DNA of 64,000 nt from Escherichia phage vB_vPM_PD112: sequence record NC_054928.1; one strand, written 5' to 3'. This document shows, piece by piece, positions 9,812 to 31,248 of the stretch. The notes beneath the pieces are model-generated. The model searched no databases. It was given only the letters and a program-made list of their open reading frames with translations, and was not told the origin of the DNA. Both the position numbers and the translations under genes were made by a program. Position 1 is the stretch's first letter. Each line of letters opens with the position of its first letter.

Positions 9812-11294
9812 TTAAAAGTATTTTTTAAAACTCATCATAACTTTATCATCAACATCATTATCAATCTGTGCAACAAGGTAAGATGACAGTTCTACTTCTT
9901 GTGGCGCGGATTGAACATTATCAGAATTAAGATATTCACGAATCCAAGGATATGGGTGTTTAACCGGAGCATCGGTAATTGGGCATGGAAGACCACACTG
10001 TTTCATACGAGATACAGTTAAGTAATCAATAAAGCTCCACATGCTATTTGTATTTAATCCAGGAACATCGCCATCTTTAAATAAATGAACTGCCCAGTCT
10101 TTTTCTTGGCGGTTAACTTCCATGAAAATATCAACTGCTTCTTGTTCACACTCTTGAGCAATTTTAACCCATTCATCACCATCAGTGCCAAGTTGAAGTT
10201 GACGAATAATATATTGGGTGCCTTTAAGGTGAAGCTGCTCATCACGTGCAATGAACTTCATAATCTTGGCATTACCTTCCATGATTTCCATGTTCTTATG
10301 GAAGTTAAAGGTACCGTTATGTTCGATTGAGCTCGCTAATTCTCAACCCGTTCTCTTATGAACTGCTACATATTACTATGCAGACCAGACTATATCACAA
10401 TCCCAGAGGGATTCTCCCCATTTCGAGTCGCTTGACCCTACGTCCGAAGACTAGTCGTTGAACCTTGCTTTGCAATTGTGCATCCTCTTAAAAGTATAAT
10501 CATTTATATTATACTAATTAAAGGTGCAAGCAAAACCTTGGCTGCTAGTTTTCCTATAAAGGACTTTCCAGCAATTAAAGGAGTTTTCGATAAACGTTAC
10601 CGTTTAAAGGCGCATTTTACGCAAAAGATACATAAAAACGAATAGCTTCTAAGGCATTAATAACGTGCAAACAGAGGTAAAGAGATTTCATTAAAGCACG
10701 TTTAGCTTCGGCTTCTTGTTTAATAGCTCGGTTTAAACGAAAATCAGCATCAGGAGATTCTTTAGCTAGTTCTACAAATTCTTTAGCATTTTCCCATTCA
10801 CGGGTTTTAATAAGAACATCATCATAATAACGCCCAATGGATTCAGCACGTTTCATAATAGCTTCATCTAATACAATCTCATCAAATACCTTCGATGGAT
10901 CAGTATAAAGATTTCGCATGATATGTGTATATGAACGGCTGTGAATAGTTTCACTAAAAGTCCACGTAGCAACCCATGTATCAAGGCTTGGGTCTGAAAT
11001 TAATGACATAAGTACAGCAGACGGCGCACGACCCTGAATGCTATCCAAAAGTGATTGATACTTCAGATTATTAGTAAAAATATTTTGCTGATACTGAGGA
11101 AGCTTATTAAACTGTGCAGCATCCATCATTAAGTTTACTTCTTCAGGACGCCAGAAAAATGATAAGGACTTCTCTGTAAGTTCTTCAAATACCTTATGTC
11201 GTTGAATATCATAACGTGCAATTCCAAGACCTGAACCGAAGAACATAGGTTCTGTTAAAACATCAACTGGATTTGTATTAAAAACTGTGCTCAT
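9812..11294 (-). CDS. nrdB: ribonucleotide reductase small subunit, split by group I intron: exons 11294..10619 and 10314..9812
   Basis: Exon 1 ends FYVSFA, exon 2 carries MEGNAKI...SDNVQSAPQEVE; predicted junction restores a Cys aligning with E. coli NrdB FA-C-SFAF. Confidence 0.88.
10315..10618 (-). other. group I self-splicing intron in nrdB, ORF-less (about 304 nt)
   Basis: In-frame stop after exon 1; 5' splice site follows U, 3' end G; core similar to td intron (GACUCGAAA..., CAGACUAUAUC). Confidence 0.75.
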
Positions 11295-14167: not shown

Positions 14168-15289
14168 TTACACTGCCATTTTTCCTTTAATAGGAGGGTG
14201 TGATTCATAACCTTTAAGAACGAAATCTTTAGGCCTGAGTTTAAGAACATATTTTAATTGTTCTTTAGTAGAAAGATAGCGGAATTTATAAGGTAGACCA
14301 CTTATTACCAGTTCACAAAGCTCTTTAGGTTCACGACGTAAAATTTCTTTACACTGTTCTACGTGATTCATATAGATATGAGTATTACCACCAGAAAATA
14401 TCAAATCTCCTGGAATAAGATTACACATCTTAGCTACAATATGAACTAACGCAGCATATGATGCAATATTAAATGGAAGCATTATGTTCAGATAAGGTCG
14501 TTAATCTTATCCCGGAATTATATCCAGCTGCATGTCACCATGCAGAGCAGACTATATCTCCAACTTGCTAAAGCAAGTTGTCTATCGTTTCGAGTCACTT
14601 GACCCTACTCCCTAAAGGGATAGTCGTTAGGCATTTATGTAGAACCAAAGTCCTACAATTTAGCACGGGATTGTCTACTAGAGAGGTTCCCCGTTTAGAT
14701 AGATTACAAGTATAAGTCACCTTATACTCAGGCCTAAATTAACCCAAGAAAACATCTACAGAACGTTGATACCACTGCAAATCCAAATAGCCATTACGCA
14801 CATTAAACTGATAGAACATGTGACAAGGCGGTAATGCCATTTGCTTAAGTTCAGCTGGATTCCATGCAGAAACAATTTGACGCCTATCATTCGGCAGTTT
14901 TTTAATACGATCAATAACTTCTATAATTTGGTCTACACCGCCAAAATCACGCCATTGTTTTCCATAAATTGGACCAAGTTCACCGCTATGATATCCTAAA
15001 TCTTTTGCTTGATTTTCGTAATTTTCATCCCAGACTGTTTTGCCTTGAATTAATGAATTATGTTGAATTAATCGCAAATCATTTACGTTAGTACTTCCTG
15101 ATAAGAACCACAATAACTCAGAAATACATGCATTCCAGGCGAGCTTCTTAGTCGTTACTGCAGGAAAACCTTTAGTTAAATCCCAACGTAATTTAGTACC
15201 GAACAAAGCAATTGTTCCTGTGCCTGTTCGGTCATCGGTTTCATAACCGTTTTCCAGGATATCTTTAATTAAAAATTGGTATTGTTTCA

Positions 15290-15290
<1 letters not shown>
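14168..15290 (-). CDS. td: thymidylate synthase, split by group I intron: exons 15290..14742 and 14479..14168 (286 aa spliced)
   Basis: Exon 1 ends VDVFLG, exon 2 begins LPFNIASYA; spliced product matches recalled T4 TS; start MKQYQ at 15290. Confidence 0.92.
14480..14741 (-). other. group I self-splicing intron in td, ORF-less (262 nt; no I-TevI-like ORF)
   Basis: Begins UAAUUUAGGCCUGAGUAUAAGGUGACUUAUACUUG, ends CUUAUCUGAACAUAAUG; matches recalled T4 td intron core. Confidence 0.85.
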
Positions 15291-16322
<1,032 letters not shown>

Positions 16323-20663: not shown

Positions 20664-20671
20664 TATAAATA
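20664..20671 (+). promoter_or_regulatory. late promoter TATAAATA for gene 34
   Basis: Exact TATAAATA 35 nt upstream of gene 34 ATG. Confidence 0.65.
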
Positions 20672-20705: not shown

Positions 20706-23700
20706 ATGGCCGAGATTAAAAGAAAGTTCAGAGCAGAAGATGGTCTGGACGCAGGTGGCGATAAAATAATCAACGTAGCTTTAGCTGATCGTACCGTAGG
20801 AACTGACGGTGTTAACGTTGATTACTTAATTCAAGAAAACACAGTTCAACAATATGATCCAACTCGTGGATATTTAAAAGATTTTGTAATCATTTATGAT
20901 AACCGCTTTTGGGCTGCTATAAATGATATTCCAAAACCAGCAGGAGCTTTTAATAGTGTACGCTGGAGAGCGTTACGTACCGATGCTAATTGGACAACTG
21001 TTTCATCAGGACCTTATCAATTAAAATCAGGCGAATCAATTTCAGTTGATACTGCAGCTGGTAATGACATTACATTTACTTTGCCATCTTCTCCAATTGA
21101 TGGAGATACTATCGTTCTTCAAGATATTGGTGGAAAACCTGGTGTTAACCAAGTTTTAATTGTAGCTCCAGTGCAAAGCATTGTAAACTTCAGAGGCGAA
21201 CAAGTACGTTCAGTACTAATGACTCATCCAAAATCGCAGATAGTTTTAATTTTTAGTAATCGTCTGTGGCAAATGTATGTTGCTGATTATAGCAGAGAAG
21301 CTGTAGTCGTAACACCGGCAAGTCTTTATCAGGCGCAATCTAACGATTTTATCGTACGTAGATTTACTTCTGCTGCACCAATTAATGTTAAACTTCCAAG
21401 ATTTGCTAATCATGGCGATATTATTAATTTCGTCGATTTAGATAAACTAAATCCGCTTTATCATACAATTGTTACTACATACGATGAAACGACTTCAATA
21501 CAAGAAGTTGGAACTCATTCCATTGAAGGCCGTACAACGATTGACGGTTTCTTGATGTTTGATGATAATGAGAAATTGTGGAGATTGTTTGACGGGGATA
21601 GTAAAGCACGTTTACGTATTATAACAACTAATTCTAGTATTCGTCCAAATGAAGAAGTTATGGTATTTGGTGCGAATAACGGAACAACTCAGACAATTGA
21701 ACTTCAGCTTCCGACTGATATTTCTGTTGGTGATACTGTTAAAATTTCCATGAATTACATGAGAAAAGGACACACAGTTAAAATCAAAGCTGCCGGTGAA
21801 GATAAAATTGCTTCTTCAGTTCAATTGCTGCAATTCCCAAAACGCTCAGAATATCCGCCTGAAACTAAATGGGTTACAGTTCAAGAATTAGTTTTTAATG
21901 GTGAAACTAATTATGTTCCAGTTTTAGAGCTTGCTTATATAGAAGATTCTGATGGAAAATACTGGGTTGTACAACAAAACGTGCCAACTGTAGAAAGAGT
22001 TGATTCTTTAAATGATTCTACTAGAGCAAGATTAGGCGTAATTGCTTTAGCTACACAAGCTCAAGCTAATGCTGATTTAGAAAATTCTCCACAAAAAGAA
22101 TTAGCAATTACACCAGAAACATTAGCTAACCGTACTGCTACAGAAACTCGTAGAGGTATCGCAAGAATAGCAACTACTGCCCAAGTGAACCAGGACACTA
22201 CATTCTCTTTTGCTGATGATATTATCATCACTCCTAAAAAGCTGAATGAAAGAACTGCTACAGAAACTCGTAGAGGTGTTGCTGAAATTGCTACGCAGCA
22301 AGAAACTAACGCAGGTACTGATGATACTACAATCATCACTCCTAAAAAGCTTCAAGCTCGTCAAGGTTCTGAATCATTATCTGGTATTGTAACCTTTGTA
22401 TCTACTGCAGGTGCTACTCCAGCTTCTAGCCGTGAATTAAATGGTACGAATGTTTATAATAAAAACACTGATAATTTAGTTGTTTCGCCTAAAGCTTTAG
22501 ATCAGTATAAAGCTACTCCAACACAGCAAGGTGCAGTAATTTTAGCAGTTGAAAGTGAAGTAATTGCTGGACAAAGCCAAGAAGGATGGGCAAATGCGGT
22601 TGTAACGCCAGAAACGTTACATAAAAAGACATCAACTGATGCAAGAATTGGTTTAATTGAAATTGCTACGCAAAGTGAAGTTAATACAGGAACTGATTAT
22701 ACTCGTGCAGTCACTCCGAAAACTTTAAATGACCGTATAGCAACTGAAAGTTTAAGTGGTATAGCTGAAATTGCTACGCAAGTTGAATTCGACGCAGGCG
22801 TCGACGATACTCGTATCTCTACACCATTAAAAATTAAAACCAGATTTAATAGTACTGATCGTACTTCTGTTGTTGCTCTATCTGGATTAGTTGAATCAGG
22901 AACTCTCTGGGACCATTATACCCTTAATATTCTTGAAGCAAATGAGACACAACGTGGTACACTTCGTGTAGCTACACAAGTTGAAGCTGCTGCAGGAACA
23001 TTGGATAATGTTTTAATAACTCCTAAAAAGCTTTTAGGTACTAAATCTACCGAATCGCAGGAAGGTGTTATTAAAGTTGCAACTCAGTCTGAAACTGTAG
23101 CTGGAACGTCAGCAAATACTGCTGTATCTCCAAAAAATTTAAAATGGATTGTGCAGAGTGAACCTACTTGGGCAGCTACTACCCTGGTAAGAGGTTTTGT
23201 TAAAACTTCATCTGGTTCAATTACATTCGTTGGTAATGATACGGTAGGTTCAACACAGTCATTAGAATTATACGAGAAAAATAGCTATGCAGTATCGCCA
23301 TATGAATTAAACCGTGTATTAGCAAATTATTTGCCATTAAAAGCAAAAGCTGTAGATAGTAATTTACTGGATGGTCTAGATTCATCTCAGTTCATTCGTA
23401 GGGATATTGCACAAACGGTTAATGGTTCACTAACCTTAACCCAACAAACGAATCTGAGTGCCCCTCTTGTATCATCTAGTACTGCTACGTTTGGTGGATC
23501 AGTTTCAGCAAATAGTACACTAACCATTTCTAATACTGGAACAGCAACTCGTCTGATTTTTGAGAAAGGACCTCAAACTGGGACGAACCCAGCTCAAACG
23601 ATGACAGTCAGCGTGTGGGGGAATCAATTTAGTGGGGGATCAGATACAACACGTTCTACCGTATTTGAAGTTAGTGATGAAACATCTTATCACTTTTATT

Positions 23701-24575
23701 CTCAACGCGATAAAGATGGTAATATAGCATTTAGCATTAATGGTACTGTAATGCCAATAAATGTGAATGCTTTAGGTTCTTTGAATGCGAATGGCGTTGC
23801 AACATTCGGTAGTTCAGTTACTGCTAATGGCGAATTTATCAGTAAATCATCGAATGCTTTTAGAGCAATAAACGGTGATTATGGATTCTTTATTCGTAAT
23901 GATGCTGCTAACACCTATTTTATGCTTACTGCATCTGGCGATCAGACTGGTGGATTTAATGGATTACGTCCATTATCAATTAATAATCAATCTGGTCAGG
24001 TTACAATTGGTGAAAGCTTAATTATTGCCAAAGGTGCTACTATAACTTCAGGTGGTTTAACTGTCAACTCGAGAATTCGTTCTCAGGGTACTAAAACCTC
24101 TGATTTATATACTCGTGCGCCAACATCTGATACTGTAGGATTCTGGTCAATCGATATTAATGATTCAGCCACTTATAACCAGTTCCCGGGTTATTTTAAG
24201 ATGGTTGAAAAAACTAATGAAGTGACTGGGCTTCCATACTTAGAACGCGGCGAAGAGGTTAAATCTCCTGGTACGTTGACTCAGTTTGGTAACACACTCG
24301 ATTCGCTTTACCAAGATTGGATTACTTATCCAACGACCCCAGAAGCGCGCACCACTCGCTGGACGCGTACATGGCAGAAAACCAAAAACTCTTGGTCAAG
24401 TTTTGTTCAGGTATTTGATGGGGGTAACCCTCCTCAGCCATCTGATATTGGTGCTTTACCATCTGATAATGCTATAATGGGGAATCTTACTATTCGTGAT
24501 TTCTTACGAATTGGTAATGTTCGCATTATTCCTGACCCAGTGAATAAAACGGTTAAATTTGAATGGGTTGAATAA
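20706..24575 (+). CDS. 34: long tail fibre proximal subunit gp34
   Basis: 1289 aa, same length as T4 gp34; internal repeated TPxxL...ATQ motifs. Confidence 0.95.
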   Translation: MAEIKRKFRAEDGLDAGGDKIINVALADRTVGTDGVNVDYLIQENTVQQYDPTRGYLKDFVIIYDNRFWAAINDIPKPAGAFNSVRWRALRTDANWTTVSSGPYQLKSGESISVDTAAGNDITFTLPSSPIDGDTIVLQDIGGKPGVNQVLIVAPVQSIVNFRGEQVRSVLMTHPKSQIVLIFSNRLWQMYVADYSREAVVVTPASLYQAQSNDFIVRRFTSAAPINVKLPRFANHGDIINFVDLDKLNPLYHTIVTTYDETTSIQEVGTHSIEGRTTIDGFLMFDDNEKLWRLFDGDSKARLRIITTNSSIRPNEEVMVFGANNGTTQTIELQLPTDISVGDTVKISMNYMRKGHTVKIKAAGEDKIASSVQLLQFPKRSEYPPETKWVTVQELVFNGETNYVPVLELAYIEDSDGKYWVVQQNVPTVERVDSLNDSTRARLGVIALATQAQANADLENSPQKELAITPETLANRTATETRRGIARIATTAQVNQDTTFSFADDIIITPKKLNERTATETRRGVAEIATQQETNAGTDDTTIITPKKLQARQGSESLSGIVTFVSTAGATPASSRELNGTNVYNKNTDNLVVSPKALDQYKATPTQQGAVILAVESEVIAGQSQEGWANAVVTPETLHKKTSTDARIGLIEIATQSEVNTGTDYTRAVTPKTLNDRIATESLSGIAEIATQVEFDAGVDDTRISTPLKIKTRFNSTDRTSVVALSGLVESGTLWDHYTLNILEANETQRGTLRVATQVEAAAGTLDNVLITPKKLLGTKSTESQEGVIKVATQSETVAGTSANTAVSPKNLKWIVQSEPTWAATTLVRGFVKTSSGSITFVGNDTVGSTQSLELYEKNSYAVSPYELNRVLANYLPLKAKAVDSNLLDGLDSSQFIRRDIAQTVNGSLTLTQQTNLSAPLVSSSTATFGGSVSANSTLTISNTGTATRLIFEKGPQTGTNPAQTMTVSVWGNQFSGGSDTTRSTVFEVSDETSYHFYSQRDKDGNIAFSINGTVMPINVNALGSLNANGVATFGSSVTANGEFISKSSNAFRAINGDYGFFIRNDAANTYFMLTASGDQTGGFNGLRPLSINNQSGQVTIGESLIIAKGATITSGGLTVNSRIRSQGTKTSDLYTRAPTSDTVGFWSIDINDSATYNQFPGYFKMVEKTNEVTGLPYLERGEEVKSPGTLTQFGNTLDSLYQDWITYPTTPEARTTRWTRTWQKTKNSWSSFVQVFDGGNPPQPSDIGALPSDNAIMGNLTIRDFLRIGNVRIIPDPVNKTVKFEWVE

Positions 24576-24583
24576 GAGGTATT

Positions 24584-25699
24584 ATGGAAAAATTTATGGC
24601 AGAGTTTGGACAAGGATATGTCCAAACGCCATTTTTATCGGAAAGTAATTCAGTAAGATATAAAATAAGTATAGCGGGTTCTTGCCCGCTTTCTACAGCA
24701 GGACCATACGTTAAATTTCAGGATAATCCTATCGGAAGTCAAACATTTAGCGCAGGCCTTCATTTAAGAGTTTTTGACCCTTCTACAGGAGCATTAGTTG
24801 ATAATAAGTCATATGCTTTTTCGACTTCAAATGATACTACATCTGCCGCTTTTGTTAGCTTCATGAATTCTATTTCAAGCAATAGACTTGTTGCTATATT
24901 AACTAACGGAAAGGTTAATTTTCCTCCTGAAGTAGTATCTTGGTTAAGAACCGCAGGAACGTCTGCTTTTCCATCTGACTCTATATTGTCAAGATTTGAC
25001 GTATCATATGCTGCTTTTTACACTTCTTCTAAAAGAGCTATTGCATTAGAACATGTTAAACTAAGTAATAGAAAAAGCACAGATGACTATCAAACTATTT
25101 TAGATGTTGTATTTGATAGTTTAGAAGACGTTGGAGCTACGGGATTTCCTAAAAGAACATACGAAAGCGTTGAGCAATTTATGTCAGCGGTTGGTGGAAC
25201 TAATAACGAAATTGCACGTTTACCAACTTCATCCGCGATAAGTAAACTCTCTGATTATAATTTAATTCCTGGTGATGTTCTTTATCTTAAAGCACAGCTA
25301 TATGCTGATGCTGATTTACTTGCGCTTGGAACTACAAATATATCTATCCGTTTTTATGATGAATCGAATGGATATATTTCTTCAACACATGCTGAGTTTA
25401 CCGGACAAGCTGAGTCATGGGAATTAAAGGAAGATTATGTAGTTATTCCAGAAAATGCAGTAGGATTTACGATATATGCACAAAGAACTGCACAAGCAGG
25501 TCAAGGTGGTATGAGAAATTTAAGCTTTTCTGAAGTATCAAGAAATGGCGGAATTTCAAAACCTGCTGAATTTGGCGTCAATGGTATTCGAGTTAATTAT
25601 GTCTGTGAATCTGCTTCACCTCCGGATATAATGGTACTTCCTACACAAGCATCGTCTAAAACTGGTAAAGTATTTGGGCAAGAATTTAGAGAAGTTTAA
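24584..25699 (+). CDS. 35: long tail fibre hinge protein gp35
   Basis: 371 aa; position and size. Confidence 0.85.
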   Translation: MEKFMAEFGQGYVQTPFLSESNSVRYKISIAGSCPLSTAGPYVKFQDNPIGSQTFSAGLHLRVFDPSTGALVDNKSYAFSTSNDTTSAAFVSFMNSISSNRLVAILTNGKVNFPPEVVSWLRTAGTSAFPSDSILSRFDVSYAAFYTSSKRAIALEHVKLSNRKSTDDYQTILDVVFDSLEDVGATGFPKRTYESVEQFMSAVGGTNNEIARLPTSSAISKLSDYNLIPGDVLYLKAQLYADADLLALGTTNISIRFYDESNGYISSTHAEFTGQAESWELKEDYVVIPENAVGFTIYAQRTAQAGQGGMRNLSFSEVSRNGGISKPAEFGVNGIRVNYVCESASPPDIMVLPTQASSKTGKVFGQEFREV

Positions 25700-25704
25700 A
25701 TTGA

Positions 25705-25730
25705 GGGAGCCTTCGGGTTCCCTTTTTCTT
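25705..25730 (+). terminator. Rho-independent terminator after gene 35 (UUCG-loop hairpin plus U-run)
   Basis: gggagccttcgggttccc followed by tttttc. Confidence 0.6.
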
Positions 25731-25738
25731 TATAAATA
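25731..25738 (+). promoter_or_regulatory. late promoter TATAAATA for gene 36
   Basis: Exact TATAAATA 24 nt upstream of gene 36 ATG. Confidence 0.65.
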
Positions 25739-25761
25739 CTATTAAAATAAAGGGGCATACA

Positions 25762-26418
25762 ATGGCTGATTTAAAAGTAGGTTCAACAACTGGAGGCTCT
25801 GTCATTTGGCATCAAGGAAATTTTCCATTGAATCCAGCCGGTGACGATGTACTCTATAAATCATTTAAAATATATTCAGAATATAATAAACCACAAGCTG
25901 CTGATAACGATTTCGTTTCTAAAGCTAATGGTGGTACGTATTTAAATAAAGTAATTTTTAATAAAGGAATGACTGTTCCTGGTGCAGGGTCAGGTGACAA
26001 TGGTATTTTTGCTGGTCCTGGTGATAATGCCACGTATGATACTACAAATATGGATATTGTTTCTTGGTATGGTATTGGTTTTAAATCATCACAAGGAACA
26101 GCAGGTAGAACTGTAGTAATTAACACGCGAAATGGAGATATTAGCTCAAAGGGTGTAATTGAAGCATCACAAATACGCGCAACTTCATTATCACCAGTAA
26201 ATAATTATGACCTTACACGGAAAGATTATGTTGATGGAGCAATAAATATTGTTACAGCAAACGCAAACTCTAGGGTATTACGCTCTGGAGACACTATGAC
26301 AGGAAATTTGACTGCGCCAAACCTTTTTTCACAGAATCCTGCATCTCAACCCTCGCATGTTCCGCGATTTGACCAAATTGTTATTAAGGATTCTGTTCAA
26401 GATTTCGGCTATTATTAA
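25762..26418 (+). CDS. 36: long tail fibre distal connector gp36
   Basis: 218 aa; position and size. Confidence 0.85.
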   Translation: MADLKVGSTTGGSVIWHQGNFPLNPAGDDVLYKSFKIYSEYNKPQAADNDFVSKANGGTYLNKVIFNKGMTVPGAGSGDNGIFAGPGDNATYDTTNMDIVSWYGIGFKSSQGTAGRTVVINTRNGDISSKGVIEASQIRATSLSPVNNYDLTRKDYVDGAINIVTANANSRVLRSGDTMTGNLTAPNLFSQNPASQPSHVPRFDQIVIKDSVQDFGYY

Positions 26419-26426
26419 GAGGACTT

Positions 26427-29400
26427 ATGGCTACTTTAAAACAAATACAATTTAAAAGAAGCAAAACTGCAGGAGCACGTCCTGCCGCTTCAGTATTAGC
26501 CGAAGGTGAATTGGCTATAAACTTAAAAGACCGCGTACTTTTTACTAAAGATGACCAAGGAAATATTATTGATCTTGGTTTTGCTAAGGGCGGTAGTATT
26601 GACGGGAATGTTATTCATATAGGAAATTATAATCAAACTGGTGATTATACTTTAAATGGCACCTTCACTCAGACAGGTAATTTTAATTTAACTGGTATTG
26701 CTCGAGTAACTCGCGATATTATTGCCGCCGGGCAGATTATGACTGAGGGCGGAGAACTTATTACAAAAAGTTCAGGTACAGCGCATGTTCGTTTTTTCGA
26801 TGGCAATAGCCGCGAACGTGGAATCATTTATGCCCCGGCTAATGATGGTTTAACTACACAAGTACTTAATATCAGGGTTCAAGATTATGCTGCAGGAAGC
26901 GAAAGCACCTATGCATTTTCAGGCAGTGGACTATTTACTTCACCTGAAGTATCAGCATGGAAATCTATTTCGTCTCCACAAATTCTAACCAACAAAGTCA
27001 TTACTAATAATAAATCTACGGGCGATTATGACATCTATTCGATGGCAGACAATGTTCCACTGTCTGAAAGCACTACTGCTATTAATCATCTACGTGTCAT
27101 GCGCAATGCAGTTGGTTCTGGTATTTTCCATGAAGTTAAAGATAATGATGGAATAACATGGTATAGTGGAAATGGATTAGACGCTTATCTTTGGTCATTT
27201 ACTTGGAGCGGCGGAATTAAATCAAGTCACTCAATTTCCATCGGTTTAACATCCGGATCTAAGGATTACTCAATATTAGGACCGTCTAGTATCGCTTTAG
27301 GAGATAATGATACTGGATTTAAATGGCATCAGGACGGATATTATTTCAGCGTTAATAATGGAACAAAAACGTTTTTATTTAGTCCTAGCGAAACAACTAG
27401 CCTAAGAAAATTTGTAGTTGGATATTCTACTAACGGAACCGATTTAACGACTCCTCCAACTGAAAACTACGCTCTTGCTACTGTCGTGACATATCACGAT
27501 AATAACGCGGTTGGAGATGGTCAAACTCTTTTAGGATATTACCAAGGCGGTAACTATCATCACTATTTCCGTGGTAAAGGTACTACAAACATTAATACTC
27601 ACGGCGGTTTGTTAGTCACTCCTGGTAATATTGACGTTATTGGTGGTTCTGTTAATATTGATGGTCGTAATAATTCTTCTACGCTGATGTTTAGAGGTAA
27701 CACAACTGGTAGCAGTTCAGTTGATAATATGACAATTTCTGTATGGGGTAATACCTTTATTAATCCTAGTGAAGGCACCCGTAAAAATGTCATGGAAATT
27801 TCTGACGCAACTAGTTGGATGAGCTATATTCAACGAACAACTGCAGGTAAAGTCGAATCGGTTATAAATGGCACCCAGATTGTTAATGAAAACTTGACAG
27901 TAGTAAAAAATGCTACATTTGACGGTACAATCAGCGCAGCCGGTGAAATCGCGACAAATGCTGTAAATGGTCTTCGCATTTGGAATGCAGATTATGGAGC
28001 CATTTTTAGACGTTCAGAAGGCAGTCTTCATATTATTCCTACAGCATTTGGCGAAGGACAGAATGGTGATATCGGCCCACTTCGTCCATTTAGTATATCT
28101 TTAGATACAGGTAAGGTTGTTATTCCTGACTTGGATTTGAGTTATGCTTCTTTTGCAGCAAACGGCTATATTAAATTCGGTGGACATGGTGCAGGTGCAG
28201 GCGGTTACGATATTCAATATGCACAAGCAGCTCCTGTTTTCCAAGAAATTGATGATGACGCGGTAAGTAAATATTATCCTATTGTTAAGCAGAAATTCTT
28301 ACAAGGAAAAGCTGTTTGGTCTTTAGGTACTGAAATTAATTCCGGGACTTTTGTTTTGCATCATTACAAAGAAGATGGTTCACAAGGCCATACGTCTCGT
28401 TTTAATCAAGACGGTACTGTTAACTTCCCAGATAACGTTTCTGTCGGCGGAGGTGAAGCTACTATTGCTCGCAATGGTAACATCTGGTCTGATATCTGGA
28501 AACCGTTTACTTCTGCTGGTGATACTACAAATATTCGTGATGCTATTGCGACTCGTGTTTCGAAAGAAGGCGATACAATGACCGGTAGGTTGACTTTATC
28601 TGCTGGAAATGATGCCCTTGTTTTAACTGCAGGCGTGGGCGCTTCATCGCACATCCGTAGTGATGTAGGTGGTACAAATAATTGGTATATAGGCAAAGGC
28701 GGCGGCGACAATGGTCTAGGTTTTTACAGTTACATTACACAAGGCGGTGTATACATAACAAATAACGGCGAAATAGCGCTTTCTCCTCAAGGTCAAGGAA
28801 CATTTAATTTTAATAGAGACCGCCTTCATATAAACGGTACACAATGGGTTGCGCATCAATCTGGCGCCTGGGGCGACCAATGGGGTTTAGAAGCTCCTAT
28901 ATTTGTAGATTTTGGATCCGTCAGCAATGACTGCTATTATCCTATTATTAAAGGAAAATCTGGTATTACTAACGAAGGATATTTTTCCGGCGTAGATTTT
29001 GGTATGCGACGCATTACTAATACCTGGGCGCAAGGTATTATTCGTGTAGGTAACCAGGAAAATGGCCATGACCCACAAGCTATCTATGAATTCCACCACA
29101 ATGGAGTTATGTATGTTCCTAACATGGTTAAAACTGGAAGATTATCAGCTGGCGGTGGTGACCCTGTATGGGGCGGCGCGTGTCTTGCTATTGGTGATAA
29201 TGATACAGGATTAGTTCATGGTGGTGATGGTCGTATTAACATGTTTGCCGATGGTGTTCATATTGCGTCATGGGGGTCTCAACGTCTGGCACATGAGGGG
29301 TTATGGGATTCATACGGTGCTTTTTGGACAGAAGTCGGTAAAGCAATTGTTTCTCATGGGCATCTCGTTCAGGCAAATGATAGCTATTCAACGTTTGTCC

Positions 29401-29753
29401 GTGATGTTTATGTCCGTTCTGATATTCGCGTTAAAAAAGACCTCGTTAAATTTGAAAATGCTTCTCAGAAGCTTTCTAAAATTAACGGTTACACTTATAT
29501 GCAGAAGCGAGGCCTAGATGAAGAAGGCAATCAGAAATGGGAACCTAACGCCGGTTTGATAGCTCAAGAAGTTCAAGCTATTTTGCCAGAATTAGTTGAA
29601 GGTGACCCTGATGGCGAAGCTTTACTTCGTTTGAACTATAACGGTGTAATTGGTTTAAATACAGCTGCAATCAATGAGCATACTGCAGAAATTGCAGAAC
29701 TTAAATCAGAAATCGAAGAACTTAAAGCATTAGTTAAATCGTTGTTAAAATAA
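26427..29753 (+). CDS. 37: long tail fibre distal subunit gp37 with C-terminal intramolecular chaperone-like domain (S74-like SDxRxK motif)
   Basis: 1108 aa; C-terminus [11 protein letters not shown]...[16 protein letters not shown] plus terminal coiled coil. Confidence 0.9.
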
Positions 29754-29757
29754 TAAG

Positions 29758-29771
29758 AGGGGCTTCGGCCC
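29758..29771 (+). other. UUCG-tetraloop hairpin GGGGCUUCGGCCCC immediately upstream of gene 38 SD
   Basis: Perfect 5-bp stem, UUCG loop; followed by GGAGG and ATG at 29785. Confidence 0.6.
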
Positions 29772-29784
29772 CTTGGAGGTTTAT

Positions 29785-30561
29785 ATGGCAGTAGCAGGAC
29801 CGTGGGTAGGATCGTCTGCAGTAGTTAATACAGGACAAAATTGGATGGGTGGCGCGGCCCAACGATTAAGAATGGGCATTCCGTTTTGGATGAGTAATAT
29901 GATAGGTCGATCTGTTGAAATAATTCACACGCTTGGAGCAGACCATAACTTCAATGGCCAATGGTTCCGAGATAGATGTTTTGAGGCAGGTAGTGCACCT
30001 ATAGTGTTTAATATCACTGGAGATTTAGTATCATATTCTAAAGATGTTCCTTTATTCTTCATGTACGGAGATACACCGAATGAATATGTTCAACTGAATA
30101 TACATGGTGTAACGATGTATGGCCGTGGCGGTAATGGCGGTAGCAATAGTCCTGGCTCAGCTGGGGGTCATTGTATTCAAAATGATATTGGTGGGAGACT
30201 AAGAATTAATAATGGCGGAGCTATTGCTGGCGGCGGTGGCGGTGGCGGTGGCGGATATTATTCTCCTTTTTCACAAATGAGATTGACCTTTGGCGGCGGT
30301 GGCGGTCGTCCGTTCGGCGCGCCGGGCGGATCTATTGATATGCAATCAGGAGCAACTGCTGGTACTATTTCTGCACCAGGCGCTGGGTCTGTGAACGGTA
30401 TCTATAGCGGCGGGTCTGGTGGTGAAGTTGGCTCCGCAGGAGGTAGATGTAATATTCGTGGTCAAGGATATGAATACGATGGCGGTGCTGCTGGTTATGC
30501 CGTCATAGGGTCTACACCGACATGGCAAAACGTTGGAGCAATATATGGTCCAAGGGTATAA
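29785..30561 (+). CDS. 38: T2-type receptor-recognising adhesin gp38 with glycine-rich segments
   Basis: ATG at 29785 (track start is TTG-extended); poly-Gly runs [11 protein letters not shown] and [14 protein letters not shown]. Confidence 0.8.
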
Positions 30562-30591
30562 TTTGAATAAATATCCTTAAAAGGAGGGTCT

Positions 30592-31248
30592 ATGGCAGCA
30601 CCTAGAATATCATTTTCGCCCTCTGATATTCTGTTGGGTGTTCTAGATCGCTTGTTCAAAGATAACGCTACCGGGAAAGTTCTTGCTTCCCGGGTAGCTG
30701 TCGTAATTCTTTTGTTTATGATGGCGATTGTTTGGTATAGGGGAGATAGTTTCTTTGAGTACTATAAGCAATCAAAGTATGAAACATACAGTGAAATTAT
30801 TGAAAAGGAAAGAAATGCACGCTTTGAATCTGTCGCCCTGGAACAACTCCAGATAGTTCACATATCATCTGAGGCAGACTTTAGTGCGGTGTATTCTTTC
30901 CGCCCTAAAAACTTAAACTATTTTGTTGATATTATAGCATATGAAGGAAAATTACCTTCAACAATAAGTGAAAAATCACTTGGAGGATATCCTGTTGATA
31001 AAACTATGGATGAATATGCAGTTCATTTAAATGGACGTCATTATTATTCCGACTCAAAATTTGCTTTTTTACCAACTAAAAAGCCTACTCCCGAAATAAA
31101 TTACATGTACAGTTGTCCATATTTCAATTTGGATAATATCTATGCTGGAACAATAACCATGTACTGGTATAGAAATGATCACATAAGTAATGACCGCCTT
31201 GAATCAATATGTGCTCAGGCGGCCAGAATATTAGGAAGGGCTAAATAA
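30592..31248 (+). CDS. t: holin T
   Basis: 218 aa, single N-terminal TM segment; T4 holin size and position. Confidence 0.9.
   Translation: MAAPRISFSPSDILLGVLDRLFKDNATGKVLASRVAVVILLFMMAIVWYRGDSFFEYYKQSKYETYSEIIEKERNARFESVALEQLQIVHISSEADFSAVYSFRPKNLNYFVDIIAYEGKLPSTISEKSLGGYPVDKTMDEYAVHLNGRHYYSDSKFAFLPTKKPTPEINYMYSCPYFNLDNIYAGTITMYWYRNDHISNDRLESICAQAARILGRAK

Follow-up and report, generated by a model that had tools for sequence, protein, structure and literature searches.

A T2/T6/S16-type distal tail-fibre and adhesin module in Escherichia phage vB_vPM_PD112, with Tsx as its probable receptor

The window analysed here is a stretch of 64,000 nucleotides from Escherichia phage vB_vPM_PD112 (sequence record NC_054928.1) and is part of a Tequatrovirus (T4-like) genome. 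Its section 26427–30561 extends exactly from the ATG of gene 37 to the stop codon of gene 38, the two genes for the distal end of the long tail fibre, which are separated by an intergenic gap of 31 nt. A first-pass annotation had described this section as a T2-type adhesin module consisting of gp37 and gp38. The length of 1108 residues that it gave for gp37 agrees with the open reading frame (ORF) 26427–29753. In the record of phage vB_EcoM_IME537, its counterpart bears the annotation long tail fibre distal subunit. The DNA of the whole 4135-nt module is 98.5% identical to vB_EcoM_IME537; 647 phage records match the module, and 113 of them cover at least 80% of it. The following features have been located in the module.

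26427–29753, plus strand: gp37, precursor of the long tail fibre distal subunit, 1108 aa (ORF)
26427–26612, plus strand: conserved N-terminal region of gp37, aa 1–62 (BLASTP and pairwise alignments)
27774–28097, plus strand: internal domain of gp37, aa 450–557, homologous to the C-terminal trimerisation domain of gp34 (Pfam Gp34_trimer, E = 6.3e-8)
29169–29417, plus strand: distal tip of gp37, aa 915–997, with DVYVR as its C-terminal end (alignment with 6F45_A)
29418–29750, plus strand: intramolecular chaperone (IMC; Peptidase_S74) of gp37, aa 998–1108, 111 aa (Pfam PF13884)
29418–29420, plus strand: putative nucleophile Ser998 (motif)
29433–29435, plus strand: putative general base Lys1003 (motif)
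29758–29773, plus strand: intercistronic hairpin AGGGGC-UUCG-GCCCCU between the stop codon of gp37 and the Shine-Dalgarno sequence of gp38 (sequence, fold and conservation)
29775–29779, plus strand: Shine-Dalgarno sequence GGAGG of gene 38, 5 nt upstream of ATG 29785 (sequence)
29785–30561, plus strand: gp38, receptor-recognising adhesin predicted to cap the gp37 trimer, 258 aa (Pfam GP38 and Gp38_N, PDB matches)
29785–29904, plus strand: N-terminal attachment domain of gp38, aa 1–40, with W7, W20 and W35 (full-length Gp38_N match)
30050–30550, plus strand: gp38 cassette that differs from phage vB_EcoM_CE1 (DNA identity in 100-nt windows and protein alignment)
30121–30504, plus strand: specificity region of gp38, aa 113–240, a polyglycine sandwich in which Gly motifs alternate with hypervariable segments (alignment)

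The C-terminus of gp37 matches the Pfam family Peptidase_S74 (PF13884) over aa 998–1057, covering profile positions 1–57 of 58 (E = 2.3e-12, 47.5 bits against a cut-off of 22). The match starts exactly at Ser998 and the domain extends to the C-terminus of the protein. Its first residues form the motif SDxRxK (S998-D-I-R-V-K1003, nt 29418–29435), which the first-pass annotation had likened to the self-cleaving chaperone domains of other phage fibre proteins. This likeness is borne out by the position of the motif at the start of the family match, the cleavage itself being predicted from homologues. The sequence DVYVR/SDIRVKK aligns with the cleavage site of phage S16 gp37, DLNVS^SDRRIKK, and therefore a cut between R997 and S998 with release of the 111-residue chaperone is predicted. 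In S16, the IMC comprises the last 113 residues, and gp37 cuts itself at DLNVS^SDRRIKK, exposing the docking site for gp38 (PMC7917993). The pattern V-Y-x-R-S-D-x-R-x-K is invariant in gp37 of phages T2, T6, RB32, and FL23, and the S, D, R, and K of SDxRxK are also invariant in S16. The motif is absent from T4 gp37, which ends in a His-rich tip. The putative catalytic Ser/Lys pair on which the earlier interpretation turned, S998 and K1003, is thus present and in register with the S16 site. The spacing of +5 equals that of Ser1264 and Lys1269 in T5 pb1, where the lysine has been proposed to activate the scissile serine and autoproteolytic release has been described (PMC4690869).

Further comparisons place the domain among known chaperones. 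Residues 915–1108 of gp37 match, with E = 1.5e-43, the part of S16 gp37 that was crystallised together with gp38 (6F45_A), and the IMC is 56% identical to that of S16. Its identity is 29% to T6 and 34% to T2, and 29–34% across T6, T2, and RB32. A profile of the IMC domain run against the PDB finds the ICA (autoprocessing) domain of MYRF (7DC3, 2.9e-9) and a fibre protein (8JOV, 1.1e-7), both aligned at the SDxRxK motif, which reads SDERLK in 8JOV and (A)DLRAK in MYRF. The two weakest PDB matches, a ribosomal protein and LRRC16A (E ~0.1), have been discarded as noise. As far as sequence can settle it, membership of the family is settled by the Pfam match, the PDB entry of S16, and the alignment of the motif. 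In T2 and T6, the C-terminus of gp37 has been described as cleaved and gp38 as added as a cap afterwards (Trojet et al. 2011), with processing of T2 gp37 reported since 1986 (cited in PMC3157838).

The rest of gp37 is a patchwork in which the N-terminal 50–60 residues are conserved in T-even phages and the tip and chaperone are of the S16/FL23 variant. In the first 50-residue window, identity to T2, T4, T6, and RB32 is 82–94%, while the remaining shaft shows 10–40%; by BLASTP, aa 1–62 are 74–77% identical to T6 and RB32. These residues are presumed to be the junction with gp36, a role suggested by the architecture of the T4 fibre. Over its full length gp37 is 84% identical to that of FL23, while aa 1–686 are 33–34% identical to gp37 of T2 and T4, and aa 706–898 are 54% identical to T6. 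Around the internal trimerisation domain, aa 418–568 match the gp34 structures PDB 4UXE/5NXF (E ~3e-16). With this copy of the gp34 trimerisation domain inside gp37, one module is common to the proximal and the distal half of the fibre. The distal tip, aa 915–997, is predicted to serve as the docking platform for gp38 after cleavage, by analogy with the role described in PMC6851490 and PMC7917993.

Gene 38 encodes an adhesin. Its product matches Pfam GP38 (PF05268) over aa 45–258 and profile positions 1–218 of 218 (E = 2.3e-71), and Gp38_N (PF21721) over aa 1–40, 40 of 40 positions (E = 3.1e-21). It also matches 9V85 (E = 4.6e-81), identified through PMC12892980 as the receptor-binding domain of PP01 gp38, and aligns end to end with S16 gp38 (6F45_D, E = 7e-52). 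Identity as a T4-type gp38 chaperone has been ruled out, as BLASTP against T4 gp38 gives E = 1.8, and no tail-fibre-assembly family is found among the Pfam matches. The protein thus groups with the adhesins and not with the T4 chaperone, the point on which its assignment in the first-pass annotation hinged.

The ORF listing starts gp38 at a TTG at 29773 (262 aa, MEVYMAVAG...), and this start has been dropped in favour of the ATG at 29785. The real start is almost certainly this ATG, giving 258 aa, because GGAGG lies at 29775–29779 and Gp38_N matches aa 1–40 counted from that ATG. The T6 record AP018814 also annotates an upstream start for gp38 (LEKIMAVVG...). Since the conserved protein begins at MAV..., some database entries for gp38 are probably over-extended at the N-terminus by 4 residues.

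The two parts of gp38 can be related to the structure of its S16 counterpart. In the attachment domain, W7, W20, and W35 are invariant in comparison with T2, T6, RB32, and FL23, and align with Trp residues of S16. In S16, a single copy of gp38 caps the gp37 trimer (3:1 stoichiometry), with its three conserved Trp residues inserted into three pockets related by the symmetry of the trimer; polyglycine-II helices, made by the glycine-rich motifs, are packed in a three-layer lattice that presents the hypervariable loops distally (PMC6851490). Glycine makes up 24% of gp38 (62 of 258 residues) and 36% of aa 113–240. The glycine-rich runs encoded by repeated GGY codons, which had been noticed in the first pass, are G149–G157, encoded by GGCGGCGGTGGCGGTGGCGGTGGCGGA (30229–30255), and G170–G174, encoded by GGCGGCGGTGGCGGT (30292–30306). 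Tandem Repeats Finder reports GGCGGT repeated 3.8 times at 30232–30254. In the alignment with T2, T6, RB32, and FL23, the invariant glycine blocks are G113–G118, G149–G155, G170–G178, G210–G216, and G233–G237, and variable segments lie between them.

The variable segments define the allele of gp38, which is T6-like. Whole gp38 is 94% identical to FL23, 86% to T6, 72% to RB32 (Ox2-like), and 50% to T2. In the specificity domain (aa 113 to the end), the values are 93% for T6 and 94% for FL23, against 64% for RB32 and 54% for T2. The N-terminal attachment domain gives another ranking, with 86% to FL23, 64% to S16, 61% to RB32, 59% to T6, and 48% to T2. The best matches of gp38 in the phage collection are GEP001, BMB16, and P8, each at 99.6%; over the whole protein, RB27 shows 97.3% and RB3/5/6/7 show 91.5% identity. 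The hypervariable segments of the T6 set are present. The T2-type (FadL/OmpF) and the Ox2/K3/RB32-type (OmpA) alleles have been rejected, at 54% and 64% identity, respectively, with loops that cannot be aligned without gaps. The earlier description of a "T2/Ox2-like" tip therefore holds for the architecture and fails for the specificity.

FL23 and FL44 have been shown experimentally to depend on Tsx (PMC12032242), and RB27 and other phages with a T6-like gp38 use Tsx (PMC3157838). RB32 requires OmpA, according to the literature. Two studies report that gp38 phylogeny or the alleles of the hypervariable segments (HVS) predict the receptor. Given the T6-like hypervariable region, Tsx is therefore expected as the receptor, and we regard this nucleoside channel, and not FadL/OmpF or OmpA, as the likely primary receptor of the phage.

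A comparison with phage vB_EcoM_CE1 (ON229909) delimits the specificity cassette in nature. CE1 is the closest relative of the window outside the distal fibre genes, with 99.2% identity over positions 1–25000. The DNA flanking the distal fibre genes is ~100% identical, and the gp35, gp36, and holin proteins are 100% identical. In gp37, which is 91% identical, the divergent patches lie at ~26600–27300, 27700–27800, 28000–28400, and 28800–29000. Identity of the DNA is then 99–100% in 29100–29999, 91% in 30000–30099, 47–64% in 30100–30499, 91% in 30500–30599, and 99–100% from 30600, and gp38 of CE1 is 78% identical overall. The cassette of the window is of the T6/Tsx type, while that of CE1 is essentially of the RB32/Ox2 (OmpA) type. 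The two phages are a natural instance of the known swap of specificity cassettes at conserved glycine motifs. Exchanging the distal half of gp38 has been found experimentally to switch Tsx to OmpA (bioRxiv 10.64898/2026.04.02.716166). The attachment domain of gp38 tracks the variant of the gp37 tip and not the specificity allele, as would be expected if both parts had to fit each other. The window and CE1 form a natural and nearly isogenic host-range pair, set apart by the gp38 cassette and by the four patches in gp37.

The module shares its two-gene arrangement and its cleavage motif with the gp37–gp38 tip of S16 (PDB 6F45; Dunne et al. 2018). The window carries an S16-like variant, in which the IMC ends in KSLLK and gp38 begins with MAV.GPWVGSS. 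Compared with that of S16, the gp37 tip contains 12 inserted residues, and the IMC has 111 aa where S16 has 113. Both gp38 proteins have the three Trp residues and the glycine runs, but not the same hypervariable loops: those of the window are T6-type, while S16 has Salmonella OmpC as its receptor. The gp38 proteins of T6, RB27, FL23, and FL44, which are Tsx adhesins, have the same set of glycine-rich motifs and hypervariable segments as the window. On the other hand, the gp37 tip and IMC of T6 belong to another variant (IMC identity 29%, ending in ...ISNYFKF), and T6 gp37 has 994 aa and only patchy similarity to that of the window. FL23 has both the gp37 type (84%) and the gp38 type of the window.

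The architecture also matches that of T2, in which a precursor gp37 with YIRSDIRLK and an IMC is followed by a 262-aa adhesin of the GP38 family (FadL/OmpF). T2 gp37 has 1341 aa, which is 233 aa longer than that of the window; it is ~33% identical to it, with an IMC identity of 34%. With T4, the window shares the locus order 34-35-36-37-38-t, the N-terminus of gp37, and the UUCG hairpin before gene 38. However, the His-rich tip of T4 gp37 itself binds the receptor and lacks an IMC, and T4 gp38 is an unrelated assembly chaperone of 183 aa. The difference from the T4 arrangement, which had already been pointed out, is therefore confirmed. In T-even phages, the predominant form combines a gp37 carrying an IMC with a gp38 adhesin, and T4 departs from it (PMC3157838, PMC6851490). 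The module is already known biology and a textbook arrangement. Among Peptidase_S74 chaperones more widely (K1F endosialidase, T5 pb1, the GA-1/phi29 appendages, and MYRF), the domain is C-terminal, comprises ~110–135 aa, and has the scissile Ser first and the Lys at +5, as in the window. The cargo in the window is a T-even fibre tip, where cleavage would make a docking site for an adhesin; in the others, it completes a receptor-binding or enzymatic domain.

Based on these comparisons, we consider it very probable that the section codes for the distal tail fibre and its adhesin in a T2/T6/S16-type Tequatrovirus and that it works by the following mechanism. Genes 36, 37, and 38 would be transcribed late as one unit. 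gp37 would be made as a 1108-aa precursor, in which the last 111 residues, from S998, would assist folding of the trimeric beta-helical tip. With the trimer correctly folded, Ser998, activated by Lys1003, would cut between R997 and S998 and the chaperone would leave, exposing a flat hydrophobic tip that ends in DVYVR. One gp38 would then dock, its N-terminal bundle of helices placing W7, W20, and W35 in three pockets related by symmetry. Its C-terminal half would form a sandwich of polyglycine-II helices from the Gly motifs encoded by the GGY runs, with the loops at the distal extremity of the fibre. These hypervariable loops would bind an outer-membrane protein, most likely Tsx for the T6/RB27/FL23 allele. 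The DNA of the conserved glycine motifs may provide the short homology for recombination that exchanges specificity cassettes.

Several points weigh against parts of this mechanism. The structure of the genes, their families, the conserved motifs, the type of allele, and the difference in the cassette are shown by the sequences themselves; the cleavage, the stoichiometry, the docking, and the receptor are all carried over from homologues, and the assignment of Tsx comes from allele similarity. The specificity domain of gp38 differs at ~8–10 residues from T6/FL23; examples are S164 in place of P in HVS2, D185, A192, A198, A201, N206, S210, and S213 in HVS3, and Y229 in HVS4. Small changes can be sufficient, since the single loop substitution Q206L switches OmpF to OmpW (bioRxiv 10.64898/2026.04.02.716166), and phage PST, three residues away from T6, gains OmpA (PMC3157838). 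The same architecture could accordingly serve a receptor other than Tsx, such as OmpA, OmpF/FadL, OmpC, or OmpW, or a dual set, by virtue of the loop substitutions in HVS2–HVS4, and a T2/Ox2-like tip had been the original proposal. We consider this unlikely, as the specificity domain is 93–94% identical to those of T6 and FL23, both experimentally Tsx-dependent, RB27 is 97% identical in whole gp38, the identity to the FadL/OmpF-type T2 and the OmpA-type RB32 is far lower, and gp38 phylogeny is reported to predict the receptor. That the loop substitutions shift or widen the specificity, towards other Tsx alleles, added recognition of OmpA or Yersinia as in PST, or a new porin, appears more doubtful still. 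If such a shift were true, the phage and vB_EcoM_CE1, being nearly isogenic, would be a useful pair for mapping host-range determinants.

Other points concern the chaperone. Sequence and profile searches of the PDB with the IMC do not reach the chains of K1F endosialidase, T5 pb1, or GA-1, and the link to the K1F and T5 chaperones is therefore made via the Pfam model and the shared motif. The upstream Arg/Asp "folding sensor" known from K1F and T5, which is supplied by a neighbouring chain and forms the oxyanion hole, has no assigned counterpart in gp37. [quoted passage not shown] An AlphaFold2 model of aa 916–1108, computed from the single sequence without an alignment, has a mean predicted local distance difference test score (pLDDT) of 41 and a predicted template modelling score (pTM) of 0.23. 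Only the last ~30 residues, a long terminal helix, reach a pLDDT of ~69–89 and the remainder is unusable, so the fold of the IMC is proposed from sequence; the helix makes a C-terminal coiled coil plausible. These gaps leave room for a degenerate or retained S74-like domain that stays uncleaved as a structural part of the mature fibre. This reading is very improbable, because Ser998 and Lys1003 are both present at the right distance from each other, the IMC is 56% identical to that of S16, which is reported to be self-cleaving, the docking of gp38 requires a tip exposed by cleavage (PMC7917993, PMC6851490), and processing of gp37 is reported for T2 and T6. By its gene number and its position downstream of gene 37, as in T4, gp38 might also be taken for a T4-type assembly chaperone that helps gp37 to fold and stays outside the virion. 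The chance of this is close to nil: the protein has no similarity to T4 gp38, it matches adhesin families and two adhesin crystal structures strongly, and gp37 brings its own chaperone domain.

The tip of the S16 type with a Tsx-type adhesin, which we prefer, has practical consequences. The module is the main determinant of the bacteria to which a T-even phage adsorbs, and its type, as read from sequence, leads to a prediction of the primary receptor, here probably Tsx. Such a prediction helps in choosing phages with different receptors for a cocktail and in anticipating resistance by tsx mutation. The comparison with CE1 illustrates in nature how specificity moves as one cassette with glycine-motif DNA at its borders, a principle that is now used in re-targeting phages by engineering. 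For annotation, gp38 in this arrangement should be named an adhesin and not a T4 chaperone, and the C-terminus of gp37 a removable chaperone.

The module is the distal part of a canonical long-tail-fibre locus. The gene order 36-37-38-t is common to the window, T2, T6, RB32, and FL23. The surrounding features are as follows.

20706–31248, plus strand: long-tail-fibre locus, canonical (ORFs and Pfam)
20706–24575, plus strand: gp34 (ORFs and Pfam)
24584–25699, plus strand: gp35, hinge protein (ORFs and Pfam)
25731–25738, plus strand: T4-type late-promoter consensus TATAAATA, 24 nt upstream of gene 36 (exact match)
25762–26418, plus strand: gp36, short distal fibre subunit joining gp37 to the hinge (Pfam Phage_T4_gp36, E = 4.8e-29)
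30592–31248, plus strand: holin t (ORFs and Pfam)

A further match to TATAAATA is found at 20664, just before gene 34. The consensus is not more frequent in the window than expected by chance (6 found, 9.4 expected), and for this reason the late promoters before genes 34 and 36 have been called by their position and from knowledge of T4 late promoters. Genes 36, 37, and 38 probably form one late transcript starting at 25731. A scan for sigma-70 promoters has been disregarded, since its yield was at chance level (28 found, 27.6 expected). Directly after gene 35, at 25703–25738 on the plus strand, lies a hairpin with a UUCG loop, GAGGGAGCC-TTCG-GGTTCCCTT, with a T-run; TATAAATA at 25731 stands immediately 3' of the hairpin and ahead of gene 36. 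This arrangement looks like a terminator-then-promoter junction within the fibre operon.

The stem of the hairpin between genes 37 and 38 is seen in both the minimum-free-energy and the centroid fold, and the hairpin is kept in T2, T4, T6 (with a UUUG loop), RB32, and FL23. The fold of the whole 37–38 intergenic RNA is not significantly more stable than that of shuffled sequences (z = -1.8), and the case for the hairpin is therefore made by its conservation across phages. In T4, a Shine-Dalgarno-like GGAG/GAGG precedes the hairpin of gene 38; in the window, GGAGG is also present 3' of the hairpin. The initiation region of T4 gene 38 is a well-known example in which a hairpin draws a remote Shine-Dalgarno sequence near the AUG.

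Two group I introns (Rfam RF00028) lie elsewhere in the window, both on the minus strand. One, at 10366–10635, splits nrdB (exon ORFs 10617–11294 and 9812–10291), and the other, at 14528–14751, splits td, the gene for thymidylate synthase (14739–15302 and 14168–14482); their scores are 68.6 and 73.8 bits, respectively. The gaps between the exon ORFs are only ~325 nt in nrdB and ~256 nt in td, and therefore neither intron appears to hold an ORF for a homing endonuclease. The T4 introns in td and nrdB carry I-TevI and I-TevIII, respectively. In the hinge protein gp35, aa 58–127 match the Pfam family ILEI (interleukin-like EMT inducer, PF15711) with E = 2.3e-8 and 34.8 bits against a cut-off of 27. 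A family of this name is surprising in the hinge of a phage fibre, and the match is probably due to a small beta-rich fold that the two have in common.

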